Assembly: GCA_951406725.2 (NCBI GenBank)
Contig: OX597843.1
Coordinates: 15,066,001 to 15,130,000, forward strand
DNA from: Octopus vulgaris
Lineage: Eukaryota
Direction: 5' to 3'
DNA length: 64,000 nucleotides
Position numbers and translations under genes: made by a program. The notes under the pieces are model-generated. The model worked only from the letters and a program-made list of their open reading frames with translations, ran no database searches and was not told the origin of the DNA. Shown one piece after another: positions 23,749 through 24,004 of the stretch (positions within the stretch are counted from its first letter, which is position 1; each line of letters opens with the position of its first letter).

Positions 23749-24002
23749 GCGCGGAGTAAACACATAAATGTAAAACAAGGTGAAAAAAAAAAGAGTACTC
23801 AAATACCAGGGGTAGAGTAATATGCTTTATTTAAAGCAGCAGAAAATTCAACAAAACCTGTTACTCTGAGTTTCCCATTGCCGTTCGTCAGACAGTTTTT
23901 GCTAGAATAGTTTTTTGCTATTCTAGCAAAAACTGTCCGACGAACGGGAACGTGAAACTCAGAGTAACAGGTTTTGTTGAATTTTCTGCTGCTTTAAATA
24001 AA

Positions 24003-24004
<2 letters not shown>
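23749..24004. mobile_element. Fold-back non-coding element (family H) with a hammerhead motif on each strand, embedded in (TA)n
   Basis: About 90-bp inverted arms (23821-23910 / 23918-24007) plus a 70-bp one-sided extension. The + arm reads CUGU-CCGACGA-ACG-GGAA-CGU-GAAACUCAGAGUA-ACAG. Confidence 0.8.

Follow-up and report, generated by a model that had tools for sequence, protein, structure and literature searches.

The window, i.e. the whole 64,000-nucleotide stretch of Octopus vulgaris DNA analysed here (contig OX597843.1), contains the last coding exon of ELOB (Elongin B) and three hairpin copies, each lying between (TA)n runs and homologous to one another (23749-24004, 53301-53492 and 57986-58215). 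A sequence-only reading had placed three copies inside (TA)n at these positions, and all of them were recovered. Copy 1 is flanked by (TA)n targets at 23692-23748 and 24004-24047. Its tail (23750-23824, minus strand) is the start of the 5'UTR of a Penelope-like element (PLE), ends in ..TACTCCG at the (TA)n junction and has a longer A run than the tail of the parent element described below (about 71 nt). The tail-bearing pLTR arm (23825-23908, minus strand) has its CUGACGA core at 23891-23885, a predicted GUA cut between 23862 and 23861, and an AATAAAG 3' end. The apex (23909-23919) is the junction of two 5'-truncated arms, both starting about -19 from C3, and holds a short insert similar to arm sequence. 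The tail-less pLTR arm on the plus strand (23920-24003) has a CCGACGA core (U4C) at 23937-23943, a predicted cut after 23966, and its AATAAAG end at (TA)n. Copy 1 folds in silico as a single duplex of ~90 bp at -142.8 kcal/mol (z -21.65), and none of 200 shuffles was equally stable.

Copy 2 consists of an inverted arm (53301-53339, minus strand) that ends 3 nt past the GUA site and carries G8A and a broken stem II, a tail-bearing arm (53347-53421, plus strand) with a CCGAUGA core at 53355, and a tail (53422-53492, plus strand). In copy 3, the tail (57986-58057) and the tail-bearing arm (58058-58137) are on the minus strand; the latter has a CUGACGA core with a 1-nt deletion behind it, and its 5' end is at -14. 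The tail-less arm (58132-58214, plus strand) has a CCGACGA core at 58148, a 5' end at -16, and a mutated 3' strand of stem I. The two arms of copy 3 overlap at a CTAG palindrome. The consensus of the motif in the window arms is C(C/U)GANGA-ACG-G(G/C)AA-CGN-GAAA-CUC-N-GAG-UA, and CCGA was again counted in four of the six arms. The presence of two motifs in each copy holds as regards the motif sequence itself; however, apart from U4C, damage is seen in three of the six arms, since the minus arm of copy 2 and both arms of copy 3 carry lesions. The 32-nt motif pattern has 8,304 exact matches across the 2.8-Gb genome versus none for a reversed control, and is therefore not a product of chance. At the Rfam gathering threshold, no hammerhead match was found in the window. 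U6 snRNA alone scored, with a match of full model length (87.6 bits) at 52991-53097 on the minus strand, ~200 bp from copy 2.

The last coding exon of ELOB (22004-22120, plus strand, stop codon at 22118-22120) is spliced to an exon ending about 17430. It ends 1.63 kb upstream of copy 1, in agreement with the distance of ~1.6 kb given earlier. Contigs of four runs from four studies, which we guess to be RNA, splice across 17426-22000 (GT..AG) and cover unique sequence at 24059-26749, some of them also 23385-23544. Contigs of two of these runs stop at 26740 and 26749, adjoining an AATAAA at 26751. These contigs point weakly to a long ELOB 3'UTR isoform (22121-26770, plus strand), with proximal AATAAA signals at 22397-22414 and the distal one at 26751. 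Among the locus contigs, whose strand is unassigned, none bridges the copy 1 hairpin, and multi-copy contigs pile up on it. We consider a long 3'UTR running through copy 1 slightly better than an even bet. In a read-through RNA, the hairpin duplex would be a putative ADAR substrate. At 24565, contigs of three of the four runs have 10 nt inserted that the window lacks, and further substitutions lie close by; these are likely alleles of other individuals.

Among the other features of the window, an open frame of 559 codons lies at 47949-49626 (minus strand), and large tandem arrays, some of them open in several frames, occupy 27100-27960, 34600-36900 and 38290 onward. The frames at 36598-37952 and 42644-43367 (both minus strand) are presumably LINE RT-like, and we take the frame at 43219 to be mariner-like. 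A broken, diverged remnant of a related PLE ORF lies at 1849-4053 (minus strand), in pieces ~30-58% identical; judged from these pieces, it is an older family of the same clade.

The parent element and its class

A search with copy 1 gave 2,070 candidates, of which 40 were scored; the best 30, chosen by likeness to copy 1, are near-uniform hairpins of ~250 bp with fixed ends and a variable apex. In a less selected set (30 of 119 tail-end matches), arms are cut at many positions and some have long upstream sequence. At one of these loci (L043/L091), a frame for a reverse transcriptase (RT) and endonuclease lies 1.1 kb upstream of the hammerhead motif. When this protein was searched in the genome, all 85 copies scored, out of 22,941 first-look candidates, showed 97-100% identity, and in many of them a frame of 727 aa is open. 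A unit of 3,359 bp at L137 comprises the 71-nt tail, the remaining 5'UTR, an ATG at nt 139 opening a frame of 711 aa, a 3'UTR of 1.1 kb, the hammerhead and AATAAAG. In tandem copies, the tail is followed by the rest of the 5'UTR and by the ORF, and at insertion ends it joins (TA)n, which explains the fixed one-sided extension seen earlier in the hairpins: it is the PLE tail. At L141, a small hairpin is itself the 5' pLTR of a full ORF. The hairpins had been proposed to be a family of their own; this part of the reading has to be abandoned, as they are the shortest insertions of a PLE.

The 5'UTR region of L137 (5289-5430) shows by eye a GTATTT in the tail/5'UTR, a CTAAC two bases beyond the tail end, a pyrimidine tract and an AG, and is a possible candidate for an intron of ~74 nt. 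An intron of 75 bp is on record for a Penelope 5'UTR (PMC8557442, cited here and below for the available part of its text). A genome search with Pfam GIY-YIG was rejected as a route to the parent: it gave another PLE family, and the motif was present in only one of its 30 loci, away from the GIY-YIG match. This second family (L095, 906-4588, and L096) has many intact 781-aa RT + GIY-YIG frames, with a further open frame of ~360 aa ahead of them. From its linker we assume it to be Neptune-like. Three related loci ~90 kb apart (L092, L093 and L094, on G000:C20) hold similarly complex nests of pLTR fragments and are probably segmental duplicates.

For the parent ORF, Pfam (with the ORF and with a 44-member alignment) and PDB sequence and profile searches gave no match to RT or GIY-YIG. 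Its AlphaFold model (pLDDT 89) has TERT as top Foldseek match (E 1.2e-9). The C-terminus carries a VVY..YTG..FKTR..H motif with a weak match (E 5e-7) to a Pfam GIY-YIG-positive PLE, and one homolog of the ORF (P0002) carries PF01541. Scoring of 7,999 candidates gave 1,082 homologs, of which the top 120 are 41-58% identical; the closest relative among them is P0001 (58%). By inspection, the ORF contains RRLRWK, SDKT, CNCKNESSC, CRLC and CRH. PLEs of the Hydra clade have RWK, DKT, a CxCX5C linker, and CxxC and CxH around the E/N, with no CCHH (PMC8557442), and the set RWK, DKT, CxCX5C, CxxC and CxH is present in our ORF. Further traits of this clade found here are insertion in (TA)n and a 3' hammerhead; more general PLE traits are partial tandems forming pLTRs, 5' truncation, an inverted 5' copy, and a tail at one end with which the element body begins. 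The unit of 3,359 bp is longer than the <3 kb general for the clade, a tendency and not a strict criterion, because its 3'UTR takes 1.1 kb. A relative at 46% identity (L348, one of two loci returned for it) has a pLTR-ORF-pLTR structure and a (TA)n end; stems I and III of its hammerhead are unlike those of the parent, yet they pair. As judged by motif inspection, the parent is a new family of Hydra-clade PLEs. No published name for the family or for the break window described below was found in the literature searched, a partial coverage without Repbase and Dfam. The family may already be catalogued, e.g. among the Penelope families counted in PMC13282606.

Ends, arms and junctions of the inverted insertions

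Inverted insertions typically end with AATAAAG joined to (TA)n on one side and with the 71-nt tail on the other, and range from 250 bp to >6 kb. Genome-wide, 4,310 tail-less and 4,989 tail ends are joined to TA. Among 19 long insertions fetched, eight of them picked for paired matches, 14 are inverted with one AATAAAG/TA end and one tail/TA end; the five others show direct arrangements only, within the stretch fetched. We recovered 88 distinct tail-less ends from loci around the first 100 listed ends. In 28 of these the arm reaches at least 100 nt upstream of the core, the 60 others being short; an inverted tail arm adjoins 50 of the short ones, the short alignment at L249 being perhaps spurious. 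Either arm may be the longer one, with a difference of up to about 1.4 kb. The apex position, already seen to differ between the three window copies, varies across copies sampled genome-wide. What is observed is thus a parent element, two fixed ends, a variable junction and a size continuum up to full-length inverted insertions. It is very probable that the hairpins are the shortest insertions of this Hydra-clade PLE, i.e. two 5'-truncated hammerhead pLTRs placed head to head in (TA)n, and likely built anew at each insertion. A Penelope-like inversion made at each insertion had been proposed from the sequence; the PLE parent, the varying apex and the extension being a PLE tail are all in its favour.

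A MITE of the ordinary kind, mobilised by a DNA transposase through its terminal inverted repeats, would also be short, high-copy, palindromic and located in TA. However, the two ends are unlike, one of them carrying the 71-nt tail, the apex is variable and the same ends flank an RT ORF, and the MITE with symmetric repeats and a transposase that had been named as the refuting case is rejected on the asymmetric ends and the RT-encoding parent. We give this explanation almost no weight. It is also improbable, to a lesser degree, that the hairpins are a non-autonomous, retrozyme- or SINE-like unit, transcribed and retroposed whole by a PLE enzyme. The uniform length of ~250 bp and the recurring apex among the best 30 matches would fit such a unit, and hammerhead derivatives of PLEs of this kind exist (bioRxiv 10.64898/2026.07.22.740005, available part). 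An apex, AACCGATATCGGTT, is common to L004, L012 and L020, and could result from copying of a ready-made hairpin. However, these 30 matches were selected for likeness to copy 1, arm lengths form a continuum in the position-sampled copies, and the arms follow the ladder of autonomous subfamilies. Furthermore, the recurring apex matches a palindrome in older parent sequence, and the retrozymes described are direct tandems.

We consider it fairly probable, as an inference, that inverted insertions arise by twin priming. The RT/GIY-YIG protein would nick both (TA)n strands, and RT would start at two internal RNA sites, one past AATAAAG and the other at the tail end. Synthesis of both cDNAs would end prematurely, in many cases immediately 5' of hammerhead stem I, and the two would be joined at short palindromes, e.g. 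CTAG. Twin priming followed by joining is the best model because another PLE extends in vitro both nicked strands from two internal sites bounding its tail, according to the available part of PMC11167929. Tentatively, the inversion could instead be due to fold-back self-priming of one cDNA or of an antisense template of the same element, in place of two primings. This has been proposed for rotifer PLEs (PMC3846280, available part), and 35 of 50 junctions overlap at short palindromes, overlaps of 1-2 nt being expected by chance. Moreover, the arms come mostly from a common template: in eight of eight older or position-sampled inverted insertions, the two arms are more alike than either is to any other locus sampled (for instance 1.9% versus 3.6-4.7% for L233, and 1.1% versus 7.6% for L156). 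This comparison is weak for the youngest insertions, and it was reversed in L138, L146 and the direct tandems L129 and L143. Against fold-back, arm lengths are unequal, by up to that 1.4 kb and in either direction, the end of the second arm falls exactly on a fixed site of its own, and some arms have different subfamily alleles. In the position-sampled set, arms differ at subfamily-diagnostic positions, at 8 of 119 sites versus a background of 35 of 1,430, and therefore one template does not explain all copies. The arms of copy 1 (23825-24003) disagree at two such sites, and the same is true of hairpins L022, L010 and L165. Differing arms look as if they were copied from different templates or from unlike pLTRs of one source.

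Among the 60 short tail-less arms, 24 start at -18 to -11 from C3, an 8-nt break window (binomial p 8e-10 versus a uniform spread from -30 to +45); 14 of these ends are U4 and 10 are C4. Sixteen of 50 partner arms start in the same break window. It lies at the 5' edge of the extended stem I and contains CTAG and CCATTCT; we take the latter to be initiator-like, a weak resemblance that is expected by chance. The break window is possibly an RNA 5' end or an RT pause, and the shared break point may thus mark the start of the element RNA. The cut site at +30 is different in this respect: only 3 of 57 5' ends lie at +25 to +35, and ends exactly at GAGTA/TATA number about 14 versus the 4,310 at AATAAAG. 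Hammerhead-cleaved RNA as main template is rejected on these counts.

Another explanation of the short copies is that long inverted PLE copies came first and were shortened by later deletion at the palindrome centre. Long palindromes are known to be unstable, and apex inserts are similar to arm sequence. Of the young U4 arms, 25 of 49 are long, and of the older C4 arms only 3 of 22 (Fisher p 0.004), a comparison confounded with age. However, young copies with identical arms are already short and have the same break window, with 14 of the 24 ends in this hot spot being U4. In addition, tail-less arms end at -13 to -18 even with a partner ending at +20 to +85, and solo arms stop at -13 to -18 too. 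Later deletion is thus unlikely, and construction from two truncated cDNAs at the time of insertion is preferred.

The hammerhead and its U4/C4 history

The core of the young subfamily is canonical, with U4 in 68 of 69 arms, CUGANGA/GAAA and an NUH site; older subfamilies are U4C. The stem II of 3 bp described previously is correct for subfamilies with U at the closing position, but the young subfamily has 2 bp and an A.A mismatch. On the ancestral state of position 4, raised by the same reading, C4 is the master state of the subfamilies to which the window copies belong. In the genome, older subfamilies have 2,720 CCGA, 201 CTGA and 139 CCAA. Because CTGA and CCAA are both minor beside CCGA, the two CUGA arms of the window are most likely products of CpG decay, and the same counts lead us to reject them as ancestral survivors. 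CTGA is in some excess (p 0.0009). A-to-I editing of the element RNA is not needed as a source of U4C. In a 29-row tree with midpoint root (29 of 63 arms, retained after thinning of the young ones), the young U4 subfamily is a supported clade (96/99) nested among C4 copies. Since Chlamys and Hydra hammerhead motifs in File S2 of PMC8557442 carry CUGA, the currently young lineage has, on sequence grounds, likely regained U4. The U4C change lowers activity in vitro, yet leaves enough for a viroid in vivo (PMC3088659, available part). No ORF was found beside C4 copies in the six loci fetched.

Within the family there is little stem covariation; the loop remains GNRA and the loop of stem III varies. 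By inspection only, stems differ yet pair in L348 and in published Hydra motifs. Helix III (ACUC-N-GAGU) is a 4-bp palindrome, cannot close in a monomer as written and requires a dimer; PLE hammerheads of such type are thought to be dimer-dependent (PMC4209133, in its available part). One strand of a hairpin has one sense motif, and 26 of 30 positions from core to cut are predicted to pair with the other arm, so that the proposed sequestration of the ribozyme in a long duplex is also predicted by folding. No self-cleavage of the hairpin is predicted in read-through RNA, because the lone sense motif would be locked in duplex without a dimer partner. Arm-arm divergence is 3.6%, ~2x the tail divergence of 1.7% (77 of 88 pairs, 11 with <40 shared sites being dropped; a mixed sample including copies chosen for likeness to copy 1). 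We infer that hairpin copies are passive and that their arms decay neutrally. Homogenisation of arms after insertion is not supported by these values (3.6% against 2 x 1.7%), nor by five shared rare variants in 5,325 sites.

Break window and U4/C4 history could be related, in a way that we regard as speculative. The two internally primed cDNAs would run to an RNA 5' end ~17 nt before the core and be joined there, and longer copies would need a template jump. Uncleaved RNA would be the template, since the cut site leaves almost no footprint. U4C masters would have given thousands of mostly short copies, and a U4 revertant would then have given many long and tandem ones. If this is true, the hairpins record, on the scale of the genome, intermediates of PLE replication comparable to retroviral strong-stop, and the U4C-then-U4 history is a natural experiment that would tie ribozyme competence to more-than-unit cDNA.

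Relation to published systems

For PLEs, the literature already describes inverted pLTRs, tails, targeting of (TA)n and pairs of hammerheads on opposite strands. The hairpin structure is ordinary in kind because a tail, pLTR inversion and hammerhead pairing are among these published features. The formation of inverted ends and the role of the hammerhead in PLEs are stated as open questions in the available parts of PMC8557442 and PMC11167929. The family offers valuable material in this respect, with its thousands of junctions that can be dated, a young ORF that is intact, a truncation window with sharp limits and the U4/C4 subfamily ladder. Follow-up should focus on the break window and the U4/C4 ladder. 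Furthermore, transcription of such self-folding repeats, present in thousands, could supply substrates for A-to-I editing, and the ELOB copy is a testable case.

The comparisons that follow rest on the available parts of the cited texts. Hydra-2_Amil, Hydra-1_Obim and Penelope-13_HM (PMC8557442) have in common with our element RWK/DKT/CxCX5C, a (TA)n target and a 3' hammerhead, and also a C-terminal EN, which in our element is putative. Stem I (ctgt/acag) and stem III (actc-N-gagt) of the Hydra-2_aMil hammerhead are the same as here, and Penelope-13_HM has, as here, an inverted 5'-truncated copy with a hammerhead on both strands. In contrast, the protein and hammerhead of Hydra-1_Obim are by eye unlike those found here. 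At 71 nt, the tail exceeds the 30-40 nt on record for PLEs, and the older subfamilies differ from the Hydra-clade references by U4C (PMC8557442).

The Cercyon PLEs of Schistosoma (PMC4209133) have dual opposite-strand min-HHRs ~100-700 bp apart, as in our hairpins. Most of their motifs were assigned to truncated PLEs; a palindromic helix III needs a dimer, and activity in vitro is weak. Cercyon helix II is of 7-8 bp and its helix III is minimal, whereas in our motif a GNRA loop closes a helix II of 2-3 bp and helix III is palindromic over 4 bp. In Poseidon PAc of Anolis (PMC11167929), internal RT start sites lie at both limits of the tail, the two strands are nicked and extended, and insertion in vitro proceeds without need of hammerhead cleavage. 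It belongs to another clade and its ORF starts within the hammerhead, whereas the ATG here is 139 nt past AATAAAG.

Non-LTR retrozymes (bioRxiv 10.64898/2026.07.22.740005) are likewise short, non-coding and PLE-derived, with a type I hammerhead. They are direct tandems with at least two sense ribozymes and no ORF, whereas the arms of our hairpins are inverted, with one sense motif per strand, and form a continuum up to ORF-bearing copies. As for editing, the Penelope of lizard is a heavily edited family and an ADAR target (PMC5625713). In the same report, the palindromic Harbinger of frog, also targeted by ADAR, is a self-folding repeat of ~200 bp that forms tight dsRNA, as copy 1 does in its predicted fold.
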